Shown here: piece after piece, positions 38,730 through 62,067 of the stretch
Layout: every line of letters begins with the position of its first letter
How positions within the stretch are numbered: the stretch's first letter is position 1
From: Eledone cirrhosa
Taxonomy: Eukaryota
Assembly: GCA_964016885.1 (NCBI GenBank)
Contig: OZ024740.1
Location: 153,140,001-153,204,000 of the forward strand
Direction: 5' to 3'
DNA: 64,000 bases
Made by a program: the position numbers and the translations under genes
The notes under the pieces: model-generated
Seen by the model: only the letters and a program-made list of their open reading frames with translations
Told to the model about the DNA's origin: nothing
Database searches by the model: none

Positions 38730-41700
38730 TCATCATCATGATCATCATCGTTTAACGTCCATCTTCCACGCTTGCATGGGTTTGGACGGGAGTTTTCCCA
38801 CTTGAGGCAAGATTGGTTATCTTGCTCGTATAGGACTGTCTAGCGGGTTTTCTACGGCTGGATGCCCTTCCTAACACCAACAACGTTTACAGTGTGGACT
38901 GGGACCTTTTTACCGTGTTACCTACACGACCACATTACAGCGTGGACTGTGTGTTTTTTTTTCGTGACACCTACACGACCTCATTTATTTCGGACTGGAT
39001 GTTGTGGTACCAACATAACTTTACATCGAAAGGGGTGGTGTGGATGGGGTGGGAGTGGTGGGACGGGGGTGTATTTTTGTTAGAGGTGTCTACTGACTGT
39101 AGGTTTCGCTCTGTTCTTAGGCAAGGCGGGTCTTCTGTATTACTGTGTAGCGCCAAAGATCTCGGTCCAGTGACATTGTCTTGGAGAGGTGTAAGTGTGT
39201 GAGATCGGAATTTATCAAGTCGTCCCAGGCTTTTCTGGGTCTGCTTACTCCGTGGCTACCGTCTATTTTTATCGCCCTGCACTTTTTTATACAGCTGTCG
39301 TCTTTCATGCGCATCACGTGACCATACCAACGTAGTCTTCTCTCGAGTAAACAACATCTGATTCCTCTTATTCCTAATTTCTCCCTTAGTTCATTTATGC
39401 TTTGCCGTTCACGTATATTACTATTACACATCCAACGGAGCATGCAAGCTTCGTTCCTCTCCAGTCTGCGTATATCCTCTGCACACAATGCCCAGGTCTC
39501 ACTGCCATGCAACATTGCTGTTCGTATGCAGGCATCATACAGCTTGCCTTTCATTTTTATGGAGAACTCTTTAGCGGCCAATAGTGGTATAAGCTCTCTG
39601 AACTTTTTCCATCCTGTTCTGACTCTGGCTACTGTACTTTCAGAGCACCCTCCACCACTGCTGATTTTGTCACCCAGGTAACGGAAGGTGTCCACTATTT
39701 CTATAGAACCATCTGTGCAATGGAATGAGCTAGTATTCTATGGGCACTTGCTGCTACTTATTGCACCTGAGCACTGGCCACATATAAAATCTATATTCTT
39801 AGTTAGCTTACCTGTGATCCCACTACATCTTTTATGCACCCATACTTTGCATTTGGGACATAAAATGGAGTTTCTGTCTACTCCTTTCCTACACACTGAG
39901 CATGGTCATTTCCCAGATGGGACCAGTGCCCTATTTTCCTTCCTACAAACTAGAACTTTAGTCTTAGACAGGTTAATTTTAAGCCCTTTTGATTCTAGGC
40001 CATGCTTCCATGTTTGGAATTTCTTCTCTAGTTCAGCCATTGATTCAGATATGAGCGTTAGATCATCTGCGTATAGAAGTTCCCATGGGCAGCCGGTCTT
40101 GAACTCCTCTGTTATAGCCTGAAGGGAAATAATAAATAGTAGGGGGCTAAGGACGGAGGCCTGATGAACACCAACTTTTCCGCTAAACTCTTCACTATAT
40201 TCGTTGTTAATTCTAACCTTGCTGACTGTTTCTTTATACATGACTTGTATAGCTCTCACAAGCCATTCATCAACACCTAGTTTTCTAAGGGCTCACCAGA
40301 TAATCGAGGGGGGGTACTCTGTCAAAGGCTTTCTCCAAGTCAACAAAAGCTAAGTATAGGGGTTTACTTTTAGCTAGGTACTTCTCCTGTAGTTGTCGTA
40401 CAATGAAAAGAGCGTCTGTTGTACTTTTACCTGACACAAACCCGAACTGCATTTCATCTAGATCAATTCGCTCTCTGATTAGTTGCGCTATTACTTTTTC
40501 TGTGACCTTCATGACCTGGTCAATTAATTTAATGCCTCTATAGTTTCCCCTATCTAGGGCATCTCCTTTACTCTTTTAGCAGTTAATGATGCTGCTGTTG
40601 CGCCAGTCCTTCGGAACAACCCCATTCTGTATGACTTAGTTTACTATCCGGGTGATTATAGTGTGTCCCACCGTTCCAGATGCTTTCAGCATTTCAGCAA
40701 CTATTTCCGAAGGCCCAGCCGCCTTGCCTGTCTTCATGTCATTGATCGCCTTACTTATTATACTACCTTCAACGATGTGGGGGAGACTGTTTTTCTCCCA
40801 TTTATTCTCCCCATTTAGTAGCCTTTCGTAGTGAAACTTCCAAGCTACCTTCTTATCAGCGTCAGGGATGGCAAGTTCACCATAATTGCTCTTCCTTACT
40901 ATCAAAAGCATCAAGTAATATGCTTTTAAATTTATTACTGGCTGTGGAGTCCTTTAACTTCCATATTTTTCTCCTGAGGATAGTCCTCTTCTGTTGTCGA
41001 GTACGTCTCGTCCTGACTATGAGGTCGCTAATTATGAGTCTATGTTGAGAGGTGCATTCTTCATGGGGGAGGGATTTAGTGTTTACAACAGACACTCTGT
41101 CACGTCTCCTGGTAAGGATATAATCTACCTGGCTGGTGTGTTCCCCTGATCTATAGGTGATCAAGTGATTGTCTCGTTTTTTGAAGTTAGTGTTACAGAT
41201 AGTTAGGTTATTTGCGTCACAGAATTCCAGGATTCTGGAGCCTTCCTCATTTCTAGTACCAAACCCATAGCCTCCATGGATTCCGTCATAGCCGTCACAA
41301 TGTTGTCCAACGTGACCATTTAGGTCGCCAGCGATAACTATGTAGTCACTGTCGGTTATTTGGGAGGTAGTGAGCATTAACGTCTCATAGAATCTGTCTT
41401 TTATAATGCCAGGCAGTCCGGATTGTGGTGCATATGCAGATATTATTGTCACAGTAGTTCTATTGAGGACAAGTCTTATTTTAATTATTCTGTCGTTCAC
41501 TCTATTTACGTCTATTATCTTATCTGCCCACTTTTCAGCTACCATGATTCCTACCCCACCCAGCCCATTGTCATTTCCCACCCAGAAAAGCTTATAGCAT
41601 TGTTCTTTACCCACAATGAATCTAGCAGACCCACCCCTCCACCTGGTCTCTTGAATACAGCAAACATCGACCTCCTTACGTTCAAGAATTTCTACAACCT

Positions 41701-41990
41701 CGTTAGAGCGACCTTTTAAGGTACCTACACTCATGGTACCAACTCTGAAGTTTTGGATTGCGTTTGGAGGGTGGGAACGGTGGGGCGCAGGGGGGTGAGG
41801 GAGATGGGGTTATGTTAGCCATCCGCGGCCGAAATAAAGAGGAGGAGTCCTTACATTCTCGTTCGGCAGCATGAGGTGAATTTGTCTTTATCTTTGGCAT
41901 TGTCACTGAGTGTCCAGATTTTTTCTTTTCAAACTCTCCAGAATTCCGTAGTCCATCCATCATATCGAAAGGCAACCAGGTCTAAACTTA
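38728..41990 (-). mobile_element. RTE-clade LINE, near full length, degraded
   Basis: APE (CCIQETRWRG, ISAYAPQ, AGDLNGHVG, SQVDYIL, SQHRL) 40877-41734; RT (QFGF, FVDLEKAFDRVP, GVHQ.SVLSP, LLYADD); FRYLG...RLRWYGHVMR; (ATG)n tail; internal deletion near 40885; 5' limit uncertain. Confidence 0.92.
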
Positions 41991-42662: not shown

Positions 42663-43184
42663 AATAATGAACTATCACTTGCTACTTACAGTGGCATCTC
42701 GGTATAGCTACGTGCGCTATAACATAGCGATGTCGAATCTTCGACCGTTTGTCTGAGACTCTATCGAAATTGTTTGGGAATAAATGTAAATATATATAGT
42801 AAATATAATGAACATTCCTGGATAGCACTGAGTAACTCAAGCATTCAGGAGAACTTGGTAAAGTATCAGCAAATACAATTTGTTGCGATTACTAAGAATG
42901 GGTTAATAAGGACAAAGATAAAGACTGTAAGCGAAGTAAAATCAAGTTCAATAGTTTCTTAAGTAGAAAATGCCGGGGATGTCTGAGGCAATCTCCAATA
43001 AGAATTTAGTATATGATACAATATATACCGTAACATATAGGATAATTGTTGTGTGTGATATTAAAAAGGAGGTAATTCATAGAAAAGAAGGGCACAACTT
43101 GTAAATTAATAAGACATGAAAGAGAACAATGGATCTTTTCTAAATCAATCTTGAGATGTGGTAAATTGAAGTTACAACAATAAC

Positions 43185-43421
43185 AACAACAATAATAGTA
43201 AAAATATTTTCTTATTTAGGCACAAGGCCAGCAATTTTGGAGGAGGAGGAAAGTCGATTAAATCGATCTCAGTTCATTAATGGTACTTTATTTTATCGAC
43301 CCCGTAAGGATGAAAGACATATCTAACTTCGGCGGGATTTGATCTCAGAACGTAAAGGCCGTAACTCTATGCCTCGAAGCATGGTATCTGATGCTCTACC
43401 GATTTTGCCAATCCACCGCCC
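43185..43421 (-). mobile_element. Meta-domain SINE, near full length
   Basis: A box TGGCAAAATCGG, B-box-like GAGATCAAATCC, CTTTCATCCTTACGGGGTCGATAAAATAAAGTACC, tail GGCCTTGTGCCTAAA. Confidence 0.8.
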
Positions 43422-44025
43422 TAGCCAGAGATGTGGGTTCGTGTCCCATGTACGTCAATGCTCATTTATTTTTCCATTCTGTGGGTTTTTATAACTCCAA
43501 TTATTAGGCTAACTAGCAGAAAACCACCCTTCGGTGGTTTTCTGCTAGTATGTGTAGTGTGTATATTGATATTATACGCATATATATATATATACATATA
43601 GATATGATACATCAAATGAAATCGTAATTGATAATATACACAGAAATTGAACGAGGTCTGCATTACACTCTCTTCTGTAATCATTAAAAAAAGACGATAT
43701 TATATATAAACTGCATTAGGAAAAAAATTAATAACGGAAATATATGTGATGTTTTGATAAGCAATCGCTAACCGGAAGTGTTGACATTTGAAAAATTTAA
43801 AGAAGTGAATCTTAAATAAGTAATAGCATTATTTATATTTAATCAAGAATAACGAAATTTAGTAGATTAATTATGAAATATTCATTCATTATTTATTCAA
43901 AGTAATCCAACTTATTTTACAAGCAGGATAAACAAATATATTCTAGATGCAGTCCCGCACTCCTTTCTTTAATATAGTTAAGATTTATTTAGTCAAAAAT
44001 ACAACGGCGGCACCATTTCACTATC

Positions 44026-44067
<42 letters not shown>

Positions 44068-44071
<4 letters not shown>

Positions 44072-44141
44072 TGTTTCTACTTTAGGCACAAGGCCAGCAA
44101 TTACCCAGTGCATTACTGGTACTTTATTTTATAGACCCCGT
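44068..44141 (-). mobile_element. 3' fragment of the same SINE embedded in (TAA)n
   Basis: Matches 38406-38480; (TAA)n on both sides. Confidence 0.8.
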
Positions 44142-44161
44142 AATAATAATAATAATAATAA

Positions 44162-44216
<55 letters not shown>

Positions 44217-44476
44217 TTTTCTTTATTAACCACAAGGGTTTACATAAAGTAGACATTAAGGACAGTACAGGACAATACAGGACGGTACAAATGGGCATTT
44301 CTGCGTGTAAAAAACAAAAACAGAGGATGTAACAAAAATAACAATGAAAATAACAATGAAAAATTCCCCAATAGGGGGGAGACTTCGGAGGGACATTTGT
44401 GGAGAAAGCCCAGTAAAAAGCCACAATGACCCTGACCACCAAGGCAAGTGCCCTCTCCCAGTTTTCCACCTTTAAT

Positions 44477-47400
44477 TTACAGATATATGCTCAGAGTAGG
44501 CCCATTCACTCGGGCCATTCTTGCTTCTCTCACCCATCTTTCAACAAAATGCTGGGAAGAGAGCACTTCCCTCTCTACTCTGATTTTCCTTTTCAAATGA
44601 AATTTGAAAAAGTCAATCAGAGCATCACCGAAGAGGTAAGTGCTCGTCTCCAGCCCTTTCAAACGTGTCCACCATACTATCTCTTTCGCCATGGCCACCA
44701 GACAGATAAAAACTGCCTGCCCTTCCCGGTTAAAGGAGGAGGGCGGGGCAATCCTCACGATGGACTCAGATGATAGCCGGATCCGTCCTAAACGCGACAG
44801 CAGGTGTTCGACATAAACCCACAAGTCAGCAATTTTCGGACACTGGACGAATGCGTGCAGGACGGTTTCGTCGCCCTGCGCGCACCTCGGACATGCCCGG
44901 CTGATGGCACCTCCATGCCTGTAGAGTTTATCCCGAACTGGCAAGGCTCCTCGGTAGCACTGCCAGGCCAGAGATTTCTGGAAGTTGTCCATAGGCCCTG
45001 GCCCGAAAGTTCTTCCGAAGAGATTGGCTAGTTGATTTTCGTCGACGCCTAGAGTTTCCCCAAGTACGTCGTCGCTCTTCCCCTCCACTAATCCTCTATA
45101 GAACGCCGAGGTGGAGTTTCCACCGATCACATTGCCCGATTGGTCGAGGGCTGTGAGCGCCTGAAGACATTCCAGTCTCCAGGCGCTCCCTCTCGGTCTT
45201 CGCTTGACCCGGGACTGCAGCTCCGTCAAGGAAACGAGCTGGGGAAATACGCGTCTAGCAAACGGCGACCACACCTGATCACCGTCGAGGAAGAGGTGTA
45301 GATGTCGTAGCCTGAGCGCGTGCCTGCGCATCATCAGCCACGGCATGCCCAGCCCTCCACGTAGCGGGTGTTGACAACAGATGGACCGCCTGACCATCGG
45401 AGCGCGTCCCTTCCACAAAAAGCGAAAGAGCAAACGCTCCAGCGCAGTCAGGCGAGGCTTAGGACAAGGTACGACGGTCAGGCGGTAGCAGATGACGGAC
45501 GCGATGTACGCGTTAGCCACTTCCGCTCGACCTTTCAGGGATAGCGTCCTCTCGGCCCATTTCTGGGTGAGAGAAGCCACCCTGCTCGTCACCTCGTCCC
45601 AGTTTTTGTCCGTCTGGAGGTCCGGACCGAACCAGACCCCTAGCAATTTAACCGGTCCGTCCGTCCAGCGTCCGACGACGCTGTTGGACGGCATGGACCT
45701 GCCTCTCCAGGTGCCGAGCTGCAGGCCCACTGACTTTTCCTGGTTGATCATTGTTCCTGTCACCGCTTCGTATTCTCTTAGTGTAGTGCCGATCGCCTCG
45801 ATGTGTTTGGCGTTCGACACCACTACGGTGACATCGTCCGCATATGCTGACACGGATCTTCCGCATCCTAGTTCGCGCGGGACGCCCCTCAACGTCTCCA
45901 GTTTGTGCAGTAATGGCTCGAGAGTCAATACGTACAAGAGGGACGAGAGGGGACATCCTTGGCGGACCGAGCGCATGATGTTGAACGGTTCCGACAGGTG
46001 ACCGTTCACTCTCACAACAGAGCAGATGTCGCTGTGCTTGGCAGCGATCCAGCCTCTGAAGACGGGCCCAAAGCCAGCCGCCCTCAGGACTGCCGCTAGG
46101 TAACGATGGTCGACCCTATCGAAAGCTTTCGACTGATCTAAATTGATCAAGGACCCACCCGTGCCAGGTTCCCTAGCTACCCTCTCTACGATGTATCGCA
46201 TGAAGTGGAGGTTGTCGTGGATGGATCTGTCGGGAATGGCGCATGTCTGCGCCTCTCCCACCAGACCACCAACGACAAGCGCCAACCTCTTTGCTAGCAC
46301 CTTGGCCAAAATCTTAAACTCTGTGTTTAGCAGAGTTATGGGCCGGAAATTTTCTATGTTATCCCCCTGTTCTGATCCTTTCTCAGCAGTGCCACCGCTC
46401 CTCGGCTCACAGAACTGGGAATTCTCCCGTTCTGTTGCCAGTTGCAGTAGACGTCCGCCAAGAGGCCTCCGAACAAGTCTGGCATCTGTACGTAAAGTTC
46501 ATAGGGCAGACCATCCAAACCAGGCGATTTACCCCTTGTGCAGCCAGTCATTGCCTCCCTTACTTCAGCGGCTGTTATCGGCTTTTCGCAACACTTCGCC
46601 TCAGTGGCCGAGAGCCGCGGCAGTCCGTCGAGGTAGACACTAAAGTCCATCCCTCGACCCGGCCCACCGCTGCCCCCGAACAGCTGAGCGAAGTGTCGCT
46701 GAAAAGCTTCACACATTTGCCCGGGATCGAGTAGCATGCGCCCGTCGTGGTCCACCAAAGACCGGATCGTGGCTTTGTTGCCACGATGCGCCTCCGCCAC
46801 TCGGGCCCATTGAACGGCTTTCGTTCCCCCGTGTCTGAAAGCACGCACCCTTGCTCTGACAACGCAGCCTTCGTGCTTTGCATTGAAGAATTGGTCAAGG
46901 GCCAATTTCGCCGCAAGCACGTCGGTCGCAATGCCTTTGCTAAGCGCCTCGTCTAATTTTCTAACTAGATCTCCCTCTGCTCTATTTTTCTCTATTGCTA
47001 AAGCCTTACTAAACCTAATGGATTCTATTCTAATCGCTCTTTTCAGAGCAAACCACCACTTGTTGTTGACGATGGCCCCCGTCAACGCCCGCTTAACTAG
47101 TTCGCTAATCCGGTCTCTGTAGGCCTTGCGCGCTGGTAAGGACGCGTTTAGCTTCCAGTAGCCGGGTCCTCGTCTATGAAGCCTATCTAAGTCAAGCACA
47201 CAGATCACGAATTTGTGGTCCGTGTAGCTGACTATCTTGAATTGTGGACAGCCTATGCTAGACCTATCTATTTCCCTACAAAATACTCTATCTAGATATG
47301 ATCTGGATGACCCTATTCGATTTGTCCAAGTCCACATTGGCGCATTCGGGAAATCCAATCGGTACCTGTCAGACAGTTCAAAACGCCTGAGCAGGTTGGT

Positions 47401-47889
47401 GAGGCTCTTGCACTCTCCACCCCTATCCGCTAATCCCACACAGTCCCAGCGTGCATCTAAGATCCCGTTCCAGTCGCCCACTAAAGAGCGGGACGTTCCA
47501 AGAAAGGTCTCCAGACGCCGGAAGAAATCAGGCCGCCCTGCTCCTGTCGGGACATAGACGGCCACTAGCCAGAAAGCTTGCCCGTCTCCGCTGGTCACGT
47601 CCAGCACCACCAGCTTACCCTCTGGGTCCAGGAAGATGGCCCGTATGGCGAGATCCAAACGTCTCCGAAAAAGCACAGCAACTCCTCCACCCGATCCAGG
47701 ACGGCTGGGAGATGCGTACACATCGTAACCGCCGAAGATCGGTGCGAAGGCCCGTGCTTCGGAGATTCTGGTCTCGCTGATGGCCACTACATCTATGTTT
47801 AGTGACCTGAGGTCGTTGAGTAGGTGACCCTGCTTCCATGACGACCCCAAGCCACGCGCATTTATGCTGCCTATTCTGAGTGAGGTCAT
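44477..47889 (-). CDS. Tx1-A ORF2: APE endonuclease, RT, CCHC tail; single frameshift near 46370
   Basis: SINARGL, ISETR, GDWN, SYLDR, TDHK; NFRPITLLN, DQSKAFDRVDH, VRQGCPLS, AYADD; CPRCAQGDETVLHAFVQC. Confidence 0.9.
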
Positions 47890-47924
47890 GTTTAAAATAG
47901 AGTGGAAAAGATGGGAAAGACCAC

Positions 47925-50030
47925 TTACCGTACTTTTGGTAGAGGAGGGATGGTTTTTACATCCCTTTTCACTTGATCGTCTGGTGAAGGGACCGTTGAA
48001 TCGTCCCTTCGGCTGGTCGTCGGCTCTTCTAAGAGAATGTCTGAATATACTCTTCGATTGATGGTTCCTCCTAGGTCCCTGAAATCACCAACTGCGTTGG
48101 GGAATTTCATTTTAATGTTTGTGTATTGTTTCTGTGCTATTTTTAGCAGTCTTATGTTAGTTGGCGTTTTGATTGGTGCTGGTATTATGTAGTCCTGTTG
48201 TGAAATGTCTGTGTGTTCAATTATGTAAGTCATTAGTTTCTTGTTGTGTGTATTTATTGCCGTGCATTTGTTTTTCTGGGGGTGGGGTGTGGTTCTGCTA
48301 TTTTCTTGTCGTTGTTGCTGGGTGTGTGTGTTTTGTTGTTGTGTTTGCGATGTTGGTGCTTGCGGTGGTGGTGTTGAAGGTGTTGTTGGCGGTGGGGTTG
48401 TCGCCGGTGGTGATGGTGGTGCTAGTGTGGGTGGTGATGGTGTTGGTGGTGTTGCTGCTGTGGGTCTATTTGCAGTAGACTTTACCCTTTTCTCATTTCT
48501 TTCCTCCCTTTTCAAAGGCGACGATGCGCTGCTTCTGCGTTTGTGCCTTCTTACGACCTTTTGCCATCCCTCTCCCACCTCACACTCCATGTCTGATTCT
48601 GTGAGGTCGGGGAGGGGTACCAGCTCCACTCTTTCACTTGTTGTTGGTGATGTTTGCACTGGAGTCTCTGTTGCAGCTGCATTTGGTATTGCTGTTGTTG
48701 TTGTTAATATTTCCACTGCTGCTGCTGTTTTTGATTTCCGTGGAGTGGGTATGGGTGCCACGGACCTATCGTTCCTGGTTGCCGCTTGTCCTGTTGCTGG
48801 TAGCCGTGGAGCCGGATTCGGAAGGAGGGGGGTTTTCTCCTTTCTCAGGGTCTTCTCGTTGCAGAAGGCCCTGAGGTGAGTCTTCGATCCACAGCGAAAG
48901 CATTTCGGGCGTTTGCCCTCAACACTTATGGGCAGTTGAGTGCCGTTATCGAAGTCTATCACATCCGGGATAGCTTCGATGCACTCCTGGTTGGTTTGGA
49001 TTAGCATCTCAATGGAGGTGCCGACCCAATCTTCTCTTACTTTTTTCTGTACTTGCAGTACAGTTGTTTTGTCCTCGATTCCGACGAGGACAGACGCGGC
49101 CAGCCAAGAAGGGGCCATTCCGGGGGGGGGGGGGGCGTGGGTCAGTTTGACCCTCACAATTTTTTTCCCGCAGTAGGAGGGCACCAACACCATTTCCTCG
49201 CTCCTTAGGGTCACTACTGATTGGGCCTTTGCCTCCTGGGGTGTGGCAAAAAGTACGTCTACGGTGGCATATTTTTTGCCTCGGGTGATGTGCGTTTTCC
49301 GCTGCCACACAGACCCCAAGGCTTTTTGTATCTGAGCCTCTGTGGCTCTTTCCACCCTACGGGATTTTGTACTTACTGTACGGTACGTGACCGTACAGTG
49401 CTGTTGGGTTTCGAAAAATGTTTCCGCTGCCTTGCAGATTGCTCGGTGTCCATTCTTTGTCACCATCTTCTTCGCTTCCTCTAATTCCTCATTTGTTATG
49501 AGGATTGTTTCCAAGTTTTTCGCAATGCCTGCAAATGAGATTGGTTTTTCTTTGCTGCTTTTGTTGTTGTTGTCGTCAGAGCTGCTGGTACTTTTGTTGT
49601 TGCTGCAGGTACTACGACTACTGCCTCCGCCGCTGTTGCTGTGGTTGTTGTTGGTGTTGCTGCTGCTAATGCTGTTGTTGTTTATGCTGCTGGTGATGCT
49701 GTTGCGGCTGCTACTGTTGTTTTCATTGTCACTGTTGCTGTTGTTATTACGGCTGCTACTGCTATTATTCCTGACGTCAGACGAATGAACTGGGTTTTCG
49801 TATTTCCCGCACACCTGTTTCGTCGCTGTCGTCGTCGTCGTGGAGAAACCTTGCACGCTTTGCACGAGACTTTTCTTTTCTTTCGTCACTTGCGAAAGAG
49901 AAGGGAGGGAGAGAGACACATTTAAAGAAGGGAGGGAGAGAGACAATCTTCTCTCTGCTGTAGTGATGATTGAGGAAGAAGAAGACGGAATGAGTGGGAG
50001 TGACGTATGAAATTTCTTTTTCGTAGCCAT
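47925..50030 (-). CDS. Tx1-A ORF1: gag-like protein with CCHC knuckle and low-complexity tails
   Basis: Open 701 aa frame; CFRCGSKTHLRAFC; Ser/Asn-rich N-terminus and Pro/Thr-rich linker; GWQKV.RR motif. Confidence 0.88.
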   Translation of the reverse strand: MATKKKFHTSLPLIPSSSSSIITTAERRLSLSLPSLNVSLSLPSLSQVTKEKKSLVQSVQGFSTTTTTATKQVCGKYENPVHSSDVRNNSSSSRNNNSNSDNENNSSSRNSITSSINNNSISSSNTNNNHSNSGGGSSRSTCSNNKSTSSSDDNNNKSSKEKPISFAGIAKNLETILITNEELEEAKKMVTKNGHRAICKAAETFFETQQHCTVTYRTVSTKSRRVERATEAQIQKALGSVWQRKTHITRGKKYATVDVLFATPQEAKAQSVVTLRSEEMVLVPSYCGKKIVRVKLTHAPPPPGMAPSWLAASVLVGIEDKTTVLQVQKKVREDWVGTSIEMLIQTNQECIEAIPDVIDFDNGTQLPISVEGKRPKCFRCGSKTHLRAFCNEKTLRKEKTPLLPNPAPRLPATGQAATRNDRSVAPIPTPRKSKTAAAVEILTTTTAIPNAAATETPVQTSPTTSERVELVPLPDLTESDMECEVGEGWQKVVRRHKRRSSASSPLKREERNEKRVKSTANRPTAATPPTPSPPTLAPPSPPATTPPPTTPSTPPPQAPTSQTQQQNTHTQQQRQENSRTTPHPQKNKCTAINTHNKKLMTYIIEHTDISQQDYIIPAPIKTPTNIRLLKIAQKQYTNIKMKFPNAVGDFRDLGGTINRRVYSDILLEEPTTSRRDDSTVPSPDDQVKRDVKTIPPLPKVR

Positions 50031-50514
50031 GTTGTTTTTTGTTTAAAATGAATATTGGGTACAAAACCACAATAACTGGTTTTTTAACCCCGAAGGGCCA
50101 AATAACGGACAGAAAGACCCCTCTCACGAGGAGGAGGGTGTCTTTATCAACAATTTGGTTCAAGTTTTAGACAATTTACAATTGTTTTAACGGTTAAAAA
50201 TTACTATACCTTACAGAGCCGAGCCTCCGTCAACCATGGCATTCAATAATAATAATAATAATGATTTCATTTATTGGCCATAAGGGCCGACATATAGGGG
50301 ACAACACAATAGACAGGGACAGTGGGGGTTTACATAGAGATCGAGTAAGTATAAATAACAAAAAACAAAATAACAATAAAAATACAACAATGAAAGTTCC
50401 CCAATAAGAGGGATCACCACCCAGGGTTGACTCAAGCACCCCACCAGTCCTGAGCCACCCGACGCTCCTAGGGCACCCGGGAAGGGCACCCCTCTCCTTC
50501 TCGAATTCACCAGC

Positions 50515-53500
50515 CTACAGGCGCATGATCAGAGTAGGCCCACTCACGCGGGCCATTCTCGCCACATTCACCCACCTTTCAGTAAATGTACTGGGGGCAG
50601 CACTTCTCTCTCCACCCTCACCTTCCTTTCCAAGTGAAACTTGAAGAAGTTGATGAGGGATTGGCCGAAGAGAAAAGTGTCTGTCTTCAGTCCTTTCAAC
50701 CTGGTCCACCATGCAACCTCTTTCGCTACTGCCACCAGGCAGAGGAAAATTGCCTGCCCTTCCTGACCAAAAGAAGGCGGCGGGTCAATCTTCACTATGG
50801 ACTCTAGCCGGATCCGTTCTACACGCGACAATAGCTGTTCGACATAACCCCACAAGTCAGCAATGCACGGACACTGGACGAGTGCGTGCAGAACGGTTTC
50901 GTCGCTATGCGCGCATCTCGGGCAGGTTCGTCTGACAGCACTTCCGCGCCTGTAGAGTTTATCCCGAACCGGCAGCGCCCCCCGGTAGCACTGCCAAGCG
51001 AGGGATTTCTGGAAGTTATCCATCGTCCCCGGCTCGAAAGTCCTCCGGAACATACTGGTCAGTTCTACTTCGTTGACGCCTAGAGCCTCTCCTAGTACGT
51101 CATCGTACTTGCCCTCCACTAATCCTCTATAGAAATCTTGAGTGGAAGTTCCACTGACCGCATTGCCCACCTTGCAGAGTGCAGTGAGCGCCTGGCAACA
51201 TTCCAGATGCCAGTCGCCCAGTCTCGGTCTCTTCTTGACCCAGGACTGCAGCTCAGTCAAAGAGATGAGCTGCGGAAAGGCCCGTCTAACAAACGGCGAC
51301 CACACCTGTTCACCGTTTAGGTAAAATATCTGGAGATGTCGCAGCCTCAGCGCATGTCTGCGCATCATTAGCCACGGCATGCCCAGCCCTCCACGAAGAG
51401 GGTGCTGGCAGCAGATGGACCGCTTCACCAACGGGACCCGTCCCCTCCACAAAAATTTGAAAAGGAGCCGTTCCAAATTGGCGAGGCGTGGACGGGGGCA
51501 AGGCACGACGGTCAGGCGGTAGTAGATGACGGACGCGATGTACGCGTTCGCCACCTCCGCCCGCCCTTTCAGTATCATTTCTGGGTGAGGTTGGCTATCC
51601 TGCTCGTCACCTCGTCCCAATTCTTATCCACCTGGAGGTCTGGTCCGAACCAAACCCCGAGCAACTTTACCGGTCCGTCTGTCCAGCGCCCAACGACGCT
51701 GTTGGACGGCATGGACTTGCCTCTCCAGGTGCCGAGCTGCAAGCCCACCGACTTTTCCGGGTTAAGTTTTGCTCCCGTCAACCTTTCATATTCCTCCAAA
51801 TGGGTGCGGATCACCTCGATTTCCGAGGTGTCCGACACCATCACGGTGATGTCGTCCGCATAAGCGGACGCAGCCTTTCTACGTCCCGGTTCGAGCGGGA
51901 TGCCCTGCAACAACTCCAGCTTCCGCAGTAGAGGCTCAAGAGTCAATACGTACATAAGTGAGGAGAGAGGGCACCCTTGACGGACCGATCGAGAGATCTG
52001 AAACGGTTCCGAGAGGCGGCCATTAACTTTGACCACCGAGCAGATGCCGCTGTACATTGCAGCGATCCAGCTTCTGAAGACGGGGCCGAAGCCAGCCGCC
52101 TCGAGGACAGCCTCCAAGTACCGATGGTCGACCCTATCGAATGCTTTCGATTGATCTAAATTGATCAGAGCCCCACCGAAGCCAGGTTTGCACCCAACCC
52201 TCTCTATGATGTATCGCATGAGGTGGAGGTTGTCGTGTATGGACCTGGTCGGGATTGCGCAAGTTTGCGCCTCCCCAACCAAATCTTTGACGACAAGCGC
52301 CAACCTTTTCGCTAACACCTTGGCCAAAATCTTAAACTCTGTGTTGAGCAGGGTTATGGGCCTAAAATTATCTAGTGTGTCCCTCTTGTTCTCGTCTTTC
52401 CTTATCAGCGTCACTACGCCACGGCTCACAGAACTGGGAATGCTCCCGTTCTGCTGCCAGTTGCAGTAGAGCGCTTCGAGGAGATCGGAGAACAAGTCTG
52501 GCAAATTTACGTAAAGCTCGTAGGGCAGACCATCCAAACCGGGTGACTTGCGACTCGAGCAGCCGACAAGGGCGTCCTGAATTTCGACTGATGTTATCGG
52601 CTCTTCGCAGCGCTCAGCGTCGGCCGTCGAGAGGCGTGGCAAGCTGTCGAGGTAGGGGCTGAAGTCCGCCGCCGTCTCCGACTCACCCATCCTCCCGAAC
52701 AATCGAGCAAAGTGCTGGCGAAAGGCCTCACACATCTTCTTGGAATCGTTCAGTTCGTGTCCATCTCGATCCGTCAAAGACCGAATTGTGGTTTTATTTC
52801 CACGCTGCGTCTCTGCAAAGCGAGCCCATCGGGCAGCTTTGGTTCCCTCGTTCCTCAGAGCACGCGCCTTAGCTCTGACAATGCAACCTTCGTGTTTCGC
52901 ATTGAAGAAATGGTCTAGTGCCATTCTCGCCGCTAGCACGTCTGTTGCAATGCCACTACAAATAGCCTCGTCTAACTTAGCTATCAGCCCCTCCTCCTTT
53001 CTATTTTTCTCTATTGCTACTTCTTTGCTAAATCCTATCGAGGTTGCTCTAATCTCTCTTTTGAGAGCCCCCCACCACCTGTTGTTGACAACCCCCCCTG
53101 TCAACTTTTGCTTAACTAAGTTGTTGACCCGGTCCCTGTAAGCTTTACGTGCCGGAAACGACATGTTTAGCTTCCAGTAGCTAGGTCCTAACCTACGTGT
53201 CTTATCTAGGTCGACCATACAGATCACAAGCTTGTGATCTGAATAGGCGACCGTTTTAAAATGTGGACATCCTACACTATTTCTATCTCTTTTCCTAATG
53301 AAAATCCTATCTATGTACGATCTAGATGACCCTATGCGATTGGTCCAGGTCCATACTGGCGCATTAGGGAAATCTAGTCGGTACCTGTCAGACAGTTGAA
53401 ACTGGCTGATCAGGTACTTGAGGCTTTTGCACCCCCCGCTCCTATCAGATACTCCCACACAATCCCAGCGTGCTTCTAAGATGCCATTCCAATCCCCTAT

Positions 53501-53911
53501 TAACAGTAAAGGGCGAGACGTAAGCAGAAAGTTTTCCAGGCGCCTAAAGAAGTCCGGCCGACCGGCCCCAGTAGGGGCGTAGACGGCCACCAGTCTAAAG
53601 GCACCACCTTCGCTACTGCTCACGTCCAGGACCACCAACTTTCCGTCAGGATCCCGGAAGATTGACCTTACCTCGAGATCCAGACATTTCCTAAACAGCA
53701 CAGCCACTCCACCTCCCATTCCCGGCCGACTAACAGATGCAAAGATCTGATAATCGTCGAAAATCGGCGCCAGTGCGCGTGTGTCGGAAATTCTGGTCTC
53801 GCTGATGGCAATTACATCCATTCCTAGTGACCTGAGGTCGTTGAGCAAGTGACCTTGCTTCCAGGGCGACCCCAGGCCACGAACATTTAAACTTCCTACT
53901 CTTATGGCCAT
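50515..53911 (-). pseudogene. Tx1-B ORF2 (APE, RT, CCHC) with small deletions and frameshifts near 51578 and 50790
   Basis: 778 aa open frame to ...ANLTQK, continuing as LKGRAEVANAY...CPRCAHSDETVLHALVQC in another frame. Confidence 0.9.
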
Positions 53912-53940
53912 GCTGGCAGGATGAATGGGAGAGGAAAGGT

Positions 53941-55856
53941 TTACTTACCTTCCGGGGTCTTGTGAAGGTCGGGTGGTTCGACCTCCATGGTTTGTGGGGT
54001 TTCTTTTGGGAACCCCTTTAATAGTCTTGAAGTGGGTTTTACGTTCGGGGTTCCCACATCCCAAGGAAAGCTCTTTCGAATTTCTTTGTATGAAGCGAGC
54101 GACATTCGCATCAGAAGCAAATTATCTGGTACGCGAAATGTGCTCGCTTCAAATGTTTCCCCCTCTTTTTCGATGTTTGTGCTTCGTGCTACATGGGCCA
54201 TCAATTCCTTGTTGGCCCTTCTGGCAAGCACGAAGTTTTTAATGTTTTGTTGCTCGGGTTTTATTTGTTCGTGTGATTGTGGTGGTGATAGCTTTGTTTG
54301 TGTTGTTTCTATTGTGTCTGCGTTTGTTGTGGGTGGGGTGTCTGTAGTTTCTGATGTTTGTGTGTCTATTTGTTCTTGTGTCTGTTTAGCTTGTTTGCGT
54401 TTGGGGGATTTTGGTGGTTGTGTTGGTGATGCTGTGGGGAAAATGTTTGTGTGGGTGGTGTGTGTATTTTTTTTTTGTGGGGGTGTTTGTGCTTTGTGGA
54501 TTTCTTTTTTTTTTTTTTTTTGTGTTTTGTTTTTTGTATTTTGGGGGACTTTGGTTTTCCCTCATCTTCACTGCTGGAGGATGAGGGGTCTGTGGCTGTG
54601 AGCGTGTTTGTGTCTGAGTGAGTGTTTATGTTCTTGTTCGTGTGTGTATTTTGGGAGGGGGGAATGGGAGAGCTTTCCTTGTTTCCCCCCTGGGTGTGCA
54701 ATTTTGGTGGTTCCATTGTTGACGGTGTTGCTGGTGGTCCTTGTCCCGGCGTCGCCAGCAGTGGAATCTTTCGACCCCTTGCGCTTTTCGGCAGTTGAGG
54801 GCAGAAGGCTCGCAAGTGTGTCGTTTCCCCACAAAGGAAACAATGCGGCCATTTGCCCTCAGTCATTATATGCAACACCCTCCCGTTTTGGAGGCGGATG
54901 TGGTCCGGGATTGCTTTTACGTTTTCGGGTCTGATTTGGAGCAGTATCTCCAGATCAACCCCGGACCAGTCATCCCTGGCAGTTCTCGTTGCCTCTACTG
55001 GGACTGTATCCGTTCCTTCCACGATTACGCAACCCAGAAGCCACCACATATAAAGTCCTGGTGGAATCCTGGGAATGCGCACACGTGCTATTCGTTTTCC
55101 CATGTGGGAGGGGTACATTATGACCTTGCTGGTTTTGCAAGGGGTCATTGAATGCTTCACAGCGAGGGCTTCAGACTTGAACAGCACCGAAACGGTGCCG
55201 TATTGCCTGCCCCTCTCTATGAAGTCTGTGTCCTCTCTGATGTATTTCAGTGCGGCTTCTATATCAGCTTGGGCGATTATCGCTGCCCTCTTTGTCTCTA
55301 CTGAGATGCATCTGAAATGCACCGTTCTTTTTTCCACTGCCTCAATGGCTTCTGCCGGGACAGTTAAGTTTGCCCAGGTCTGCTCTTGATTTATGATTTT
55401 CCAGGCCTGGGCCAACTTTTCCTCTCTGTTGGTTAAGTCGATGCTGTAGCATGGTCTCCTTTTAGCCGCTGCCACAGCAGCGAAGGTGTTCTTGTTGGTG
55501 TTGTCACTGTTGTTGTTCTTGTTGGTGTTGCTGCTGCTATTGCTGTTGTTGTTCTCCCCTGTGTCGTGGTTACCCTCTGTGCTGTTGGCCTTGTTGGTGC
55601 TGCTGCTGTCGCTACTATTACTCTCTGTGCTGTTCGTTTTGTTGGTGCTCTCGCTATTACCACCTTCTGCGCTGTTCGGCTTGTTGGTGTTGGTGTTGTC
55701 GCTGTTACCACCTTCCGCGCCGCTCGGCCCGTTGGTGCTGGCACTGTCGCTGCTCACACTCGTGCTGGTGGCGCTCCTCGCCTCACCTCTCCTCTCAACG
55801 CTCAAGTCGCCGTTGCACAACAGCAGACCCGCCTCTAGGGGGCGTGGCTCCGCCAT
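53941..55856 (-). CDS. Tx1-B ORF1, frameshifted in a long homopolymer near 54510
   Basis: CFLCGETTHLRAFC knuckle, Ser/Asn/Thr repeats; the C-terminal part lies in the frame of ORF 53941-54231. Confidence 0.82.
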
Positions 55857-56142
55857 GGATTTTTGAGAAAAAAAATTATTATTTTTCCAAAATAAAGTTC
55901 AAATATTTGGGCCAAAAGGCCCAAATATTATGAGTTATTCCTTCACAGGATACAAATGAATGTCTTATAATGCTTCAGCGGTACAAAAAAATAAACAATT
56001 CTCCACAATTAATCCTCAAAAAATTGCTTACTCACGGAGCTTCAAAAAACGTACATCCACTTTCGTCAATAATAATAATAATAATAATAAAATAATAATA
56101 ATAATAATAAAATAATAATAAAATAATAATAATAATAATAAA

Positions 56143-56506
56143 AAAGATCGTGTCTGATTGTGGATGTGGCCTGCCCATTCGACACGAGAGTGCAAGAGAA
56201 GGAGAGGGAGAAAATTAACCGATACCAGGACCTAAAGTGGGAGGTGAAATGGATTTGGAACTGCCATGAAGTCAAAGTGATCCCGATTGTCATAGGAGCA
56301 CTGGGGACTATCTCCAAAAGTTTCCAGGGATGGTTAAAGAAAATCGGCCCCTTCACGCTTTTTGGAACGCTTCAAAAGGCATGCTTGCTGGGAACAGCAA
56401 GAACCCTCCGATACGTCCTGAATATCTGAGGCTGCAGGTAGTGGCTTGATATTCATTCCAACGGACTTTCCAGTTAACCAACATCAATGACTGAGATTCA
56501 AGGAAT
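56143..56506 (+). mobile_element. R4/Dong-clade 3' fragment between (TAA)n tracts
   Basis: IVDVACPFDTRVQEKEREKINRYQDL...PIVIGALG (REL domain); nearly identical to 60265-60625. Confidence 0.88.
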
Positions 56507-57339
56507 AACAACAACAACAATAATAATAATAATAATAATAATAATAGGGAATAATAATATAGGGAAAAAAACGCACATGGTGGATATATATCGTTATGGA
56601 ATTGCTCCCGTAAGTTTTTGATTTTTACTTATTTAAAACAACTGTGATAGAATAATTCTTATTACAAATGAAATATAAGATTACAGTTTAAACCCTCAGC
56701 AGGCGACAACGCATCATATTACGGCATAGGGCCCCAATATTTAATATTTAATTTTGGATCAGAAATGTTATAGTCGAAAAAGAGAAAAATGGCTAAGTGG
56801 ACAGACAGGCAAATAATTTCACCACCAACACCACCACCGCCACCATTACCACTACCACGCCCAAAACTCTAGTCAAGTTACCTCAACTTCTATTTCTACT
56901 TCAACTTCAACACCATCACTACAGTACTACGATCACATCACCACTCCCACTGCCTCATTATCGCTACTGCCGCTATTCTCTCCCACTACCTCCTGCTAAG
57001 TACTACTAGCACAGCACCACCACCACCACTGCCTCATTATCGCGACCGCCGCTATTCTCTCCCACTACCTCCTGCTAAGACAGGCATCGTAGTATTCCCA
57101 CTAAATGAGGAAGGCATCAAAAGATATAAATAGACTGATTTGATGACGCGGTCAAAAAATCAAAAAATCAAAAATCAAAATCGAAACAGCACAGCAGCAA
57201 CGAAAAACGCAAAGAAAAGAAAAAAGAAAAGAAAAACAAACAGACAGACAAGCAGAAAAATCAGACATTCAAACATTACATTACAATGAAACTTATGCTT
57301 ATTTTTTGGGATTTTTACCTGTTTGTTTGTTTATTTATG

Positions 57340-60300
57340 TTCGTCTACAGCGTGATAGTGCCACGCTAAAATCATCACCCGAGGTGATGAAATCACCGGT
57401 GGTTATGTAACCATACATTCACCAATCCTCGATAAGAGTGTTTCAATGTCGAACCTAAACAGTTCGAATAACGGTGAAGTGTAGACTGGAATGTCATGTG
57501 ACAGACTCTCACCCAGTAGGTGCTCCCTGGCTCAGCAGCAGGGACCTGGCTGTCAACCAAATACTGCTGGTGTCGGAGGAAGAAGAAGAAGGAAAGGGAC
57601 CAGAACCAACTGGACGAAAGAATTGAAGAGAACTGTTATGCAATGTTACCTGAAGTGTAACCCCAAGGAAAAAGGCTATAGGAAACGAATGCATCTGGAA
57701 CGAGATTGGTCTATTTAAATTAGATGAACAAAAATTGGCCGGGCAGGCTCGGGTAATAAGAACTAATGGGTGGATAAGCGAGCTGGAACTGGAGGAACTG
57801 AGCAGAGAGATTAGGTTGGAAATGGAAAGTGGAGTATGCCAGGCAAACGAGCCAGTGGGAAATGAAGGTGAAGAGGTTGAGAGAACGGAGGAACCATCCG
57901 AAGCAGACAATGATCTGAATGCTGAAATAAATAATACCTGGAACAGAGATACTGCCATTGAGGAGATGAATGCTGACGGGCTAGGACAAGATTTGGTTGA
58001 TATCCTAAACTTAGTGGTAGATGAAATGAACAATGATAGTGGGAAACCTATGAACCTAAGATTTGTAGACAGGAAAAGGTTAAAAGAAACAACAGCTAAG
58101 GTAAACAAAGTCATCCCATACCTTGAGGCGAGGAGCCTTCACCAATGCAACAATATCCTCAAAGCAACAGCAAATGCGGTGAGGAAATTACTTGGCATAA
58201 AAGCGAGAGGAAAAAACAAACAAGAAAGATCAGAACCTTGGTGGAAGAAACGACTGAATGGTCAAATCAGGGAAATGAGAAATGACATTGGAAAGCTTGA
58301 TTCCCTACTGAATGGGACACTAAAAAACATAGACACTAAAAATAGACTGGAAATAAAGTATAAAACTAGGAGGAAAAAGCTAAATATTATCATAGAGGAA
58401 CTGAAGCAACGCATTGTAGCAAAGAGTACAAAAATTAGGCGATACGAGAGCAGAGTCAGTCAGTATAGACAGAACCGCATGTTTGACAACAACCAGAAGA
58501 TGTTGTTTGGACAGCTTGAAGGGAAAGAAAGAGGCAACGACTTGATCCCTGAGGCGGAACAAACTAAGACATTCTGGAGAGGAATATGGGAGCAGGATGT
58601 TAAACATAATGACCAGGCAGTGTGGATTGAGACAGTACAAAAGGAGATTAGTGAACAGGCACACCAACAAACTGATTTGAGTATCACAGTTGAAACTCTT
58701 AAGGGGCAGGCCAAAAAACTAACCAACTGGAAATCACCAGGCCCAGATGGTGTGCAGGGGTATTGGATTAAAAATATAACATCCCTCCACCCGAAACTGA
58801 CAACCATGTTCAATGACTGCTTGATGTCAGGTGAGGTACCAGAGTGGTTGACAAAACGTACCACAGTTCTGGTAATGAAAGACCGAATCAAGGCAGTTGT
58901 TGAGCAAAAGTATGAAGTCCTGGAAAACAGAGTTAACATCAGCTGGAGAATCCTTGGGAGGCTTGAAGATTAAGAGAGGTATCTTCCAGGGAGATAGTCT
59001 GTCCCCTCTGTTGTTTGTCCTTGCCCTGATGTCCCTGACCATTATACTGCGAAAAGTGAGAGCAGGATACAAGTTGGGAAAGGGAGAGCTTACGATCAAT
59101 CACCTACTCTTCATGGACGATCTTAAGCTCTTCGGGAAGAGTGAGAAGGAGTTGGATGTGCTTGTTGACACTATCCGTATTTTCAGCAATGATATATGTA
59201 TGCAATTTGGTATTAGTAAGTGTGGAGTCCTTGTGATGAAGAGGGGTAAATTGAGCAGAAGCAACGGAATACAGATACCAACAGGTGAGATGATAATGGA
59301 AATTGACACTGGAGAAGGATACAAGTATTTGGGTGTTCTGGAGGCTGATGACATCAAGAACAAAAAAAATGAAGGAATTGATAAGATCTGAATACATTCA
59401 GAGAATAAGGAGCGTATTAAAGTCATATCTGAACAGTAGGAATGCCATAAGTTAAGTGCAGTAAATTCCCGAGCTGTGTCTATTATTAGGTACAGTGCGG
59501 GAATTCTGAGATGGAATGTTGCTGAACAAAAAGAAATGGGTAGGAAGACTAGGAAGCTATTGACTATCTACAACATGTTCCACAAGAGGAGTGATGTCGA
59601 TAGACTCTAGTTAAGGAGATCTGAAGGTGAAAGAGGTCTTATCAGCATAGAGGACTGTGTTTAGATGGAGAAAAACAACCTACACAAATACGTGACTGAT
59701 AGTAAGGAGCCAATGCTCAGAATTGTACCGAAGGAGAGGACAATAGACCAGGGGATGTCCAAGGAGGAAATAACAAGGAGAAAGAGCAGCCTTCATGAAA
59801 AACCCCTTCATAGTCCCTTCTTTGAGAAAACTGAATTCAGAGATCCACAGACATGGAACTGATTGAAAAGAGGAGACCTTAAAAAGGCTACAGAAGTAAT
59901 GCTAATGGCTGCGCAAGAGCAGGCCCTCAAAACGAAGTGGCTGAAACACCATATTTACAAGGAGGAGGCTAGCCCACTGTGTAGGATCTGTGGGGAGAGA
60001 GAGGAGACTGTGGTTCACATTGTATCCGAGTGTAAACACCTAGCCCAGACTCACTATAAAGGCTGGTGACATGATGTGATGGGCAGGGTGATCCACTGGC
60101 ACCTATGCAAAGTAAATAATTTACCACATTCTGAGAAGTGGTATAAGCATAAGCCAGAGTCGGTGATGGAAAACGATCAGGTGATGGTGCTGTGGGATTT
60201 TAGGATACAGACGGACAAGAAACTGGAACACAATAGACCTGACCTGGTGGTTTTGGACAAGGGAAAAAGATCGTGCCTGATTGTGGATGTAGCCTGCCCA

Positions 60301-60627
60301 TTCGACACGAGAGTGCAAGAGAAGGATACCAGGAATTAAAGTGGGAGGTAAAAAGGATTTGGAACTGCCATGAGGTCAAAGTGGTCCCGATTGTCATAGG
60401 CGCACTAGGTACTATCTCAAAGATAGGTACTATCTCAAAGAGTTTCCAAGGATGATTAAAGAAAATTGGTCCCGCCCCGCTTTTTGGAACACTTCAAAAG
60501 GCATGCTTGCTGGGAACAGCAAGAACCCTCCGATACGTCCTGAATATCTGAGGCTGCAGGTAGTGGCTTGATATTCATTTCAACAAACTTTACAGTTAAA
60601 TAACATCAATGACTGAGACTCAAAGAA
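57340..60627 (+). mobile_element. R4/Dong-clade non-LTR retrotransposon, near full length, degraded
   Basis: NWKSPGPDGVQGYWIK, GIFQGDSLSPLLF, HLLFMDDLKL, YKYLG, CRICGEREETVVHIVSEC, HNRPDLVV, IVDVACP; RT deletion near 58890; (TAA)n tail; 5' limit uncertain. Confidence 0.9.
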
Positions 60628-60656
60628 CAATAATAATAATAATAATAATAATAATC

Positions 60657-61146
60657 AACATAACAAGGTCTGTTTATTGATAGATATGAGCATCCCATGT
60701 GATCACAATATCGCGGCAAAAGAATTTGACAAGCTACGAAAATATAAAGATCTGCTTATTGAAATTGAGAAAATGTGGCACCTCAAAGCCGTTACAATAC
60801 CAGTGATTGTGGGAGGACTGGGAATGATCAAGAAAGGAACAGAACAATATTTGCGAATGATTCCTGGTTTACCCTCTCTGCACGAGGTGCAAAACATTGT
60901 TTTGACTAGTACTGCACACGTATTGAGAAGAGCACTATCTCTGTAAGATTGATATCCCTCCTTTTATTTACATATGCATATACACATGTGTATATATATG
61001 TTTTAAAAAAAAAATTTTTTTAAATTATAATCAATGTGGTGTATTAACTGGCTTACCAATGCACACTGTGAATTTATTTGCTCTAGGTGTCAGGAAGACA
61101 CTCGGCATATATCTCAGAAACAATAATGAAAGAAAAAAAAAAAAAA
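60657..61146 (+). mobile_element. 3' fragment of a second Dong-like family
   Basis: LIDMSIPCDHNIAAKEFDKLRKYKDL..EIEKMW...IPVIVGGLG; starts immediately after (TAA)n and ends in poly-A. Confidence 0.82.
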
Positions 61147-61562
61147 TATGTTTTCTTTATTAACCACAAGGGTTGTCATAAAGAATAACATTAAGGACAG
61201 CACAGTACGGTACAGGGAGGTACAAATGGGCATTTCTGCTTGTAAAGAAAAAAAACAATAACAAAGGAAATAACAAAAAACGAAACAAAGGAAAATTTCC
61301 CAATAGGAGGGTGACTTCTAAGGGTCACCCTTGGAGAAAGCCCATTAAAAAAAACACGGTGACCCTGACCACCAGGGCAAGTGCCCTCTCCCAGTTTTCC
61401 ACCTCTAATCTACAGGCGCACATTCAGAGCAGGCCCATTCACTCGGGCCATCCATGCTTGCCTCTCTCACAAATTCAACAAATTGCTGGGAAAAGAGCAC
61501 TTCCCTCTCCATCCTGATTTTCCTTTTCAAATGCATCAGGGTACCCTCGAAGAGGTAAGTGA
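61147..61562 (-). mobile_element. 3' fragment of a Tx1 family A-like element
   Basis: 'atgttttctttattaaccacaaggg' and the ORF2 tail match 44213-44640. Confidence 0.88.
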
Positions 61563-62067
61563 TATGATTACCAATCACAAAATGTTTGATCAAAGACGAA
61601 TTAAGGGGCCTACACTCTTGTAGTTCTATTTTGTCGAATTTTATCGTCAAGCTTTATTTTATATCAACTAATTCACTATAGACAACATCTGGTGTAAGTT
61701 GTCAATCATTCAGAAAAAAAAGAAAAAAAACATATATTTATGAACCACATGTCAGTTTGTTTTATAAGTAAACTTTATTTCAAATATTTTACTATTTAGA
61801 CAACTTTGAAGAACATTTACTCAATAAACAGTCATTAGAATATTACATCAGAAAAACATGGAAATATCGTTGATTCGTGAAAGTGAATGGGTTTATTATT
61901 TAAATCAATTTAAATTTACTTAGAGATTTAGTAAATACGTATCCATAAATTATTATTTCATAATTTATCACCTTCTCTTTTCTCGTACACAACTACACAC
62001 TCCCACTCTCCCTCTCTCCCTTTCTCGCTCTAACTCTTACTATCTATTTATTTATCTATCTGTCTGT

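Follow-up and report, generated by a model that had tools for sequence, protein, structure and literature searches.

Introduction

Among the Tx1 families of long interspersed nuclear elements (LINEs), several have been described as specific for one microsatellite, such as Kibi for (TC)n, Koshi for (TTC)n and crocodilian families for (TTCC)n or (TTTC)n, a target preference being accepted when the target is present in more than 20% of the flanks (PMC4494074). Dong, of the R4 lineage, occupies TAA repeats in Bombyx mori, and a hepatitis delta virus (HDV)-like ribozyme at the 5' end is a feature of Dong/R4 elements (PMC3774820). Dong-R4 and L1-Tx1 families are both reported as recently active in Octopus vulgaris (PMC13282606). 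Here we describe a stretch of 64,000 nucleotides of Eledone cirrhosa (assembly GCA_964016885.1, contig OZ024740.1, positions 153,140,001 to 153,204,000 of the forward strand; "the window"), in which two families of Tx1-type LINEs, TxA and TxB, are stacked with Dong elements of opposite orientation on tracts of (AAT)n, which read (ATT)n in the direction of the Tx elements. A sister family, TxC, is present elsewhere in the window.

Two further systems are relevant to the way in which such stacks grow. Human L1 produces chimeric or templated insertions that are completed on nearby DNA by a step resembling synthesis-dependent strand annealing (SDSA), as a minority event and with templates typically below 250 bases (bioRxiv 10.1101/2024.08.27.596794). 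Arrays of R1 are attributed to double insertion followed by unequal exchange, with 33-nt duplications (PMC5932611).

TxA and TxB Copies Lie Behind (ATT)n Repeats

We counted 5' ends genome-wide by exact 5'-end patterns in the 3.0-Gb assembly. The repeat TTATTATTATT was found directly upstream of 1553 of 1604 TxA and 309 of 317 TxB 5' ends, against a background of 19 among the 140,014 strand positions of seven arbitrarily chosen 10-kb stretches (1.4e-4 per position, or about 1 in 7000). Many TxA and TxB copies stand in unique DNA, in tails of short interspersed nuclear elements (SINEs) or at Dong ends, and not behind another Tx element.

The 3' pattern of TxA has 5990 exact matches genome-wide, corresponding to at least 5990 TxA-family 3' ends. 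Flanks were read in a position-ordered sample of 93 distinct matches from the first 63 Mb of C1, sorted by coordinate, of which 8 ran off the fetched DNA; among the 85 resolved copies, 47 were full length and 38 apparently truncated. All 47 full-length copies had (ATT)3 upstream, as did 17 of the 38 apparently truncated TxA-family copies, or 15 of 31 after removal of four chimeras that could not be resolved, a copy of nearly full length and two local duplicates. In the background, (ATT)3 lies within 15 bases upstream of 0.24% of positions, and the enrichment at truncated 5' ends is therefore roughly 100-fold, with a 33-base window at these ends compared to the 15-base background window. Because truncated copies also carry the repeat upstream, ATT is not just a tail. 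On the other side, ATT opens the 3' flank in 90 of the 93 sampled copies.

Perfect 5' ATT tracts of TxA peak at 6–7 units and range from 2 to 27 (L057 has only two perfect units), and target duplications in three informative copies measure 16 bases (L132), about 11 (L073) and 17 (L212). It is very probable that TxA and TxB aim at (ATT)n repeats. The preference is strong, not strict, and looser than that of Dong.

One exception to the single orientation was observed at L180 (C1:62,859,832-62,859,984), where two TxA 3' ends face each other tail-to-tail with an (ATT)n(AAT)n palindrome between them. At L123, L152, L160, L165 and L167, truncated Tx 5' ends are joined to the interior of a reversed Dong with no repeat between them, which suggests deletions at head-to-head junctions.

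The Sister Family TxC Prefers (TATC)n

The 3' pattern of TxC has 1249 matches at ≤1 mismatch. TTATC opens 25 of the first 30 3' flanks, and at the 16 visible 5' junctions, read by eye, two or more TATC units were present in seven and (ATT)3 in none. No full-length TxC 5' end was identified among 13 longer stretches. TxC thus prefers (TATC)n.

The endonuclease hairpin that aligns with the L1 betaB6-betaB5 loop reads TNRIG in TxA, TxB and the related TxA2 (see below) and ANRIG in one further ATT-flanked copy; in TxC it is ANRSG in 6 of 8 copies, the other two having ANRSR and ENRSG. The one-residue change (I versus S) may contribute to the switch between ATT and TATC, but it is a lead only, because loop grafts in L1 alter nicking while point mutants left specificity unchanged (PMC1950540), and because TxC and the ATT families differ at ~30% of bases.

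These data bear on the possibility that the repeat is carried by the element itself, as an AUU leader and a tail on the RNA, with a nuclease that needs a short ATT motif only, which would not be true microsatellite targeting. Such a leader would fit the presence of (ATT)n upstream of 97–100% of full-length copies but only 17/38 truncated ones, the peak at 6–7 units, and the sites that supply just one or two ATT units themselves (L086, L073, L132). Truncated copies, however, would be unable to carry a leader and are nevertheless enriched for the repeat, the 5' tracts span 2 to 27 units (with only two perfect units in L057), and TxC truncations show TATC, not ATT. The peak does not call for an RNA leader either, because target duplications suffice to explain it, whether taken as the 11–17 bases of the informative copies or as 16–21 bases. 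We consider a repeat carried on the RNA improbable. A fixed AUU leader, raised by the 6–7-unit peak, was unsupported, as tract length varies; 3 of 20 fetched 3' ends were not located in that check.

Dong Occupies the Repeat of TxA and TxB with Reversed Orientation

Genome-wide, 8343 sites match the 3' pattern of Dong, so that at least 8343 Dong 3' ends are present. Of the first 30 matches, 13 ran off the fetched DNA, and (AAT)n was found at 15 of the 17 visible 5' junctions, the two misses being one internal break and one copy adjoining TxA. Whole copies, too, start after (AAT)n, as is characteristic of Dong/R4 insertion into (TAA)n, and the 5' start of the whole Dong element of the window (~56550) recurs after (AAT)n at other loci. 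Eight of the 30 Dong tails are tail-to-tail with a Tx 3' end, and one meets a truncated Tx the other way round. Dong therefore uses the same duplex repeat as TxA and TxB, in opposite orientation.

In target-primed reverse transcription, the primer strand is opposite to the sense strand of the element. We infer that the apurinic-type endonuclease (APE) of Tx would nick the (AAT)n strand and the restriction-like endonuclease (REL) of Dong the (ATT)n strand, in each case priming reverse transcription. Each insertion would leave fresh repeat at both ends, so that stacks can grow, and with every insertion the tract is probably renewed and not merely split. A SINE with the orientation of Tx and a Tx-like 3' end is probably a passenger, moved by Tx proteins; ATT repeats follow 35 of 45 of its ends, at loci that were chosen around Tx and Dong and are biased in that respect.

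An initial annotation of the window had proposed convergent (TAA)n targeting by two nuclease types in opposite orientation, and had taken the TxC copy as a hint of target divergence. The former is supported by the 5' flanks and by the orientations of Dong and Tx, the latter by TxC flanks that favor TATC and not ATT, and the check that it had named, of 5' flanks for (TAA)n, revealed (ATT)n enrichment at TxA, TxB and truncated TxA 5' ends. It had also pictured a single tract as serially split, for which no empty allele was among the joints listed (see below).

That the region is a passive hot spot, AT-rich or tolerant, in which elements collect and tracts are tails that grew later, is very improbable: every family ends in the repeat, so tails alone would place tracts between stacked elements, and the window is rich in other microsatellites, yet tails leave unexplained the 5' flanks of solitary copies in unique DNA, the fixed opposite orientations of Tx and Dong, and the different repeat of TxC.

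Tandem Tx Copies Often Share the 5' End of Their Neighbor

TxA copies also occur head-to-tail, at 6.06 kb spacing. In 14 direct TxA pairs, the first 500 bases were identical in 7, compared to 2 of 384 unrelated young pairs, and the last 500 bases were identical in 2 of 14, compared to 44 of 384. For the seven sharing pairs, the neighbor ranks 1–2 of 47 over the 5' 500 bases and 16–47 over the 3' 2 kb. The set of 14 leaves out the gapped pairs A55_3/4 and 4/5 (neither of which shared a 5' end), pairs with intervening DNA and the C11 array described below. Most TxA pairs were drawn from a list in which both copies had to contain the young 5' 26-mer, and the control was limited to young 5' ends accordingly.

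The clearest cases are A57 and B63, where the 5' end of an old resident is joined to a young 3' part. A57 (C1:57.085-57.104 Mb) contains three TxA copies with a duplicated imperfect linker of 42 bases. Its last copy is old throughout; the middle copy matches the last over ~1.3 kb and the front copy over ~0.55 kb, and both are young beyond that point, so that the join was made twice in succession. B63 (C1:63.981-63.994 Mb) has the same pattern with a resident that is still more divergent. Imperfect linkers of 24–59 bases are duplicated in A57, A114, B22 and B109. Among seven TxA pairs fetched after A57 and A114, three had no differences and two more had 1 and 2 differences. In small TxB arrays, the first 500 bases were shared in 4 of 7 pairs, compared to 0 of 97 unrelated ones; two of these four are near-identical throughout. 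Inserts whose 5' part duplicates adjacent DNA, as would be expected of SDSA-type events, are found at other loci of the genome and not in the stack of the window.

These patterns would be expected if a Tx cDNA, primed in the repeat directly ahead of a resident, often left its RNA early, annealed to the resident and finished there, duplicating the linker and 0.5–3 kb of the resident's 5' end. The product would be a mosaic of full length whose 5' end is local and whose 3' end is foreign. Judging from the sequence comparisons, we favor such neighbor completion during insertion as the explanation of the shared 5' ends.

The main rival is that neighbor-like 5' ends arise after insertion, when a truncated copy in front of a resident is followed by unequal crossing-over or gene conversion between alleles. 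This would yield the same product sequence, and unequal exchange that expands tandem elements is documented for R1 (PMC5932611). Units that are near-identical as a whole (B80, T29, T423_2/3) point in the same direction, as do the long arrays, where patchy mosaics are common to non-adjacent units. At C11:49,973,089-50,051,920 (L181-L190), 13 full-length TxA copies stand head-to-tail, 1–24 differences apart and with both open reading frames (ORFs) open in 11; the minor allele of 28 of its 51 variable sites is present in copies elsewhere. The linkers of this array are of four types, all pieces of the array's front flank, and a linker of the prefix type is always followed by the complementary suffix type. 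At C1:423,361,500-423,420,500 (L321-L326), 10 TxB copies stand head-to-tail with identical (ATT)5 linkers, neighbors being most alike at the front and diverging towards the end. Unequal exchange probably contributed to the growth of these two arrays of 13 and 10 copies. For the C11 array, a simple model of insertion at the front was discarded, since it leaves the four linker types and the patches unexplained.

For the small arrays, on the other hand, simple pairwise unequal exchange predicts that the 3' part of a middle unit matches the upstream unit, and A57 and A114 each have three units with three different 3' parts. The bias is moreover one-sided (5' shared 7/14 versus 2/384; 3' shared 2/14 versus 44/384), and A57 would require two separate events of insertion plus crossover at a single locus. 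We therefore consider exchange after insertion unlikely as the source of the shared 5' ends, though a good deal less so than a repeat carried on the RNA. Assembly artefacts, through read correction or haplotype switching among near-identical repeats, are a very doubtful source of the mosaics: these were seen in a single assembly, but the segments of A57 and B63 are 4–10% apart, too different for correction to merge, and an artefact gives no cause for the 5'-sidedness or the duplicated imperfect linkers.

Several points weigh against repeat targeting with neighbor completion. (ATT)3 is not upstream of 21 of the 38 apparently truncated TxA-family copies, of which five adjoin the inside of a reversed Dong, two adjoin (TTC)n, and others adjoin (CTA)n, a satellite with only ATTATA, or unique DNA; the target is not that of Kibi or Koshi, and (TTC)n is directly 5' of only 2 of the 38. 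The preference of the nuclease is read here from the flanks of inserted copies. When four contig sets were aligned to 43600–62000, no left-to-right flank joint, and hence no empty allele, was among the joints listed; contigs break at repeats and 921 further joints lie outside the listing, which makes this comparison uninformative. As regards tandem copies, 5 of 14 TxA pairs and 3 of 7 TxB pairs do not share a 5' end, the members of pair B2 resemble each other more at the 3' end, and for the TxB pairs B80 and T29, near-identical over their whole length, plain duplication is an equally good explanation. The long arrays on C11 and C1 show scattered patches and no simple pattern of shared 5' and foreign 3' ends. 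The Fisher P of 4e-10 for TxA counts pairs as independent although they are not, and neighbor copying had been suggested by A114 and A57 (two pairs each) before the other pairs were fetched. Taking these points into account, we hold repeat targeting and neighbor completion, judged as a whole, with good confidence.

Organization of the Stack and Identity of Its Elements

The features of the stack, and the TxC copy used for comparison, are as follows.

44026–44071, plus strand: (AAT)15 tract, left edge of the stack; 3' tail or target of the SINE piece
44072–44141, minus strand: SINE 3' piece, 70 bases, in the same direction as TxA and TxB; its last 25 bases resemble Tx 3' ends
44141–44215, plus strand: (AAT)25 tract, 3' flank of TxA
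44216–50244, minus strand: TxA, full-length young LINE, 6029 bases; ORF1 at 47925–50042; ORF2 with APE, reverse transcriptase (RT) and zf-RVT, one frameshift near 46400
50245–50262, plus strand: (AAT)6 linker, flanking TxA on its 5' side and TxB on its 3' side
50263–56067, minus strand: TxB, full-length young LINE, 5805 bases; 76% identical to TxA over ORF2, 5' 2.2 kb unrelated; ORF2 frameshift near 51600
56068–56140, plus strand: (AAT)n tract with inserted A residues, where TxB and the truncated Dong meet head-to-head
56141–56505, plus strand: Dong 3' piece, 5'-truncated, 83% identical to the next Dong
56506–56549, plus strand: (AAC)/(AAT)n, tail of the Dong piece, also flanking the whole Dong on its 5' side
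~56550–60627, plus strand: whole, decayed element of Dong/R4 type; 5' untranslated region (UTR) and a single disrupted ORF containing RT, a CCHC finger and the PD..D motifs of a restriction-like nuclease
60628–60655, plus strand: (AAT)n, Dong tail
~60656–61120, plus strand: 3' piece belonging to another REL-type family, with the C-terminus of the nuclease in frame
61150–61560, minus strand: older Tx1-type 3' piece, 82% identical to TxA, tail-to-tail with the second REL piece; its flank is a T-run, not (ATT)n
11975–15090, plus strand: TxC, 5'-truncated sister family, 71–73% identical to TxA and TxB, ending in (TATC)n

The six (AAT)n tracts, all on the plus strand and each adjoining the end of an element, lie at 44026–44071, 44141–44215, 50245–50262, 56068–56140, ~56519–56546 and ~60629–60655. 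In positions 1–44000 of the window, TTATTATTATT occurs at 4 of 88,000 strand positions, and six tracts each at an element end are far beyond chance. Pile-ups of this kind are typical of the genome. The TxB-TxA pair of the window consists of two different families and is without a neighbor-copy mosaic.

With respect to this layout, the initial annotation had placed six (AAT)n tracts on one strand, two full-length Tx1 families on the minus strand with (TAA)n at both ends, and a related Tx1 at 11975 ending in (TATC)n, and all of these were recovered, with ORF2 frameshifted in both full-length elements. It had also listed three Dong pieces on the plus strand. Three REL pieces are indeed present in that orientation, but the second is a whole decayed Dong and the third belongs to a different REL family.

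TxA and TxB contain two ORFs, with an N-terminal APE, an RT and a C-terminal zinc finger in ORF2 (Exo_endo_phos, RVT_1, zf-RVT). Their RT falls in the L1 group, the closest solved structure being human L1 ORF2p (E 3e-47), with R2 proteins at E 2e-21 or weaker. The Tx1 label that we use for TxA, TxB and TxC is provisional and reflects this architecture and the similarity to the L1 group. Database searches for relatives returned no named Tx1 or Dong protein, and none of the 20 Dong relatives found carries a name; the only close named match of TxB ORF2 is a short stretch of 78% identity in an Octopus bimaculoides gene model. Both ORFs are open in 27 of 47 full-length TxA units.

The decayed Dong of the window has the single-ORF layout of Dong/R4 with RT, CCHC finger and PD..D nuclease motifs (the latter two read at 59863–60340) and no APE, and an intact relative, P0118, at 52% identity, has the complete single-ORF RT-REL layout. 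An Rfam scan of 43000–62000 gave no match beyond three sub-threshold chance hits; no fold search was aimed at the HDV-like ribozyme of Dong.

A further family, TxA2, has an ORF2 96% identical to that of TxA and an unrelated 5' 2.1 kb (5' UTR/ORF1). ATT repeats precede it in every case (L127 and 18 further loci), it made up 19 of 36 full-length copies in one set of loci, and it is found head-to-tail with TxA in both orders. Separately, L125, L121 and L157 combine TxB-like with TxA sequence as chimeras or nests, the breakpoints lying within ORF2 or ORF1. The first base after ATT is G in all three ATT families (window positions 50244 and 56067; L127). A copied cap is known for L1, and this G could be one as well. 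Contigs from run X4, labelled organism B, are nearly identical to the 5' regions of TxA and TxB (11 differences in 1516 bases), reflecting a close relative, contamination or transfer.

Elsewhere in the window, two more LINE fragments of other families were observed, an RT on the plus and an APE on the minus strand, at 151–1926 and 40877–41809. The region 22689–27324 has long ORFs on both strands (855, 244, 215 and 170 aa), with a Pfam match in none of the three that were scanned. The window is also rich in other microsatellites.

Discussion

Use of the two strands of a single microsatellite by two unrelated types of nuclease would be a clean example of convergent targeting. Sister APE families that are closely related but differ in their repeat (ATT and TATC) offer a natural pair for asking what APE specificity is based on, a determinant that loop grafting in L1 left open (PMC1950540).

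Neighbor completion, if true, would give LINEs 5' completion on a neighbor at high frequency, and with it a way for truncated copies to recover promoters and for LINE lineages to exchange 5' UTR and ORF1. The mechanism of such exchange is poorly known. Neighbor copying could produce 5' swaps of the TxA/TxA2 type, since the two families stand head-to-tail in either order; a fresh ORF1 swap between TxA and TxA2 was not caught among the loci examined. Tentatively, repeat targeting might then act as built-in recombination, in which cDNAs are steered to the front of residents and routinely copy resident 5' ends, rescuing truncated cDNAs as full-length and often intact elements, building arrays and exchanging promoter and ORF1 among families. 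The process has a visible share in shaping the genome, which contains at least 5990 TxA-family and 8343 Dong 3' ends.

Compared to Kibi, Koshi and the crocodilian Tx1 families, TxA and TxB are likewise APE-type elements of the L1/Tx1 group with one preferred microsatellite, and they exceed the 20% criterion widely; they differ in their (ATT)n target, in having a sister family on (TATC)n and in their mollusc host (PMC4494074). The Dong elements resemble known Dong in the single-ORF layout of RT and restriction-like nuclease and in having (AAT)n on both sides, whereas here an APE element shares the repeat, in opposite orientation (PMC3774820). The portion available of the Octopus vulgaris account gives no target for Dong-R4 or L1-Tx1 (PMC13282606).

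As in the SDSA-like events of human L1, the Tx cDNA would leave its RNA, pair with nearby DNA and duplicate a genomic segment, but with 0.5–3 kb of a resident element copied, in about half of the tandem pairs, and with full-length products (bioRxiv 10.1101/2024.08.27.596794). As in R1, a site preference leads to head-to-tail copies split by duplicated target, and long arrays follow; most non-LTR (long terminal repeat) tandem junctions in that study involve 5'-truncated copies, whereas Tx units are mostly full length and often mosaics of a local 5' and a foreign 3' end (PMC5932611). Literature searches, in which most matches were seen as listings and Repbase was outside the search, returned no report of an ATT- or TATC-specific Tx1, of a target shared with Dong, or of routine neighbor completion in tandem LINEs. 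Relative to these known systems, what is new here is an ATT target shared with an unrelated nuclease, together with a 5' end that appears to be frequently templated by the neighbor.

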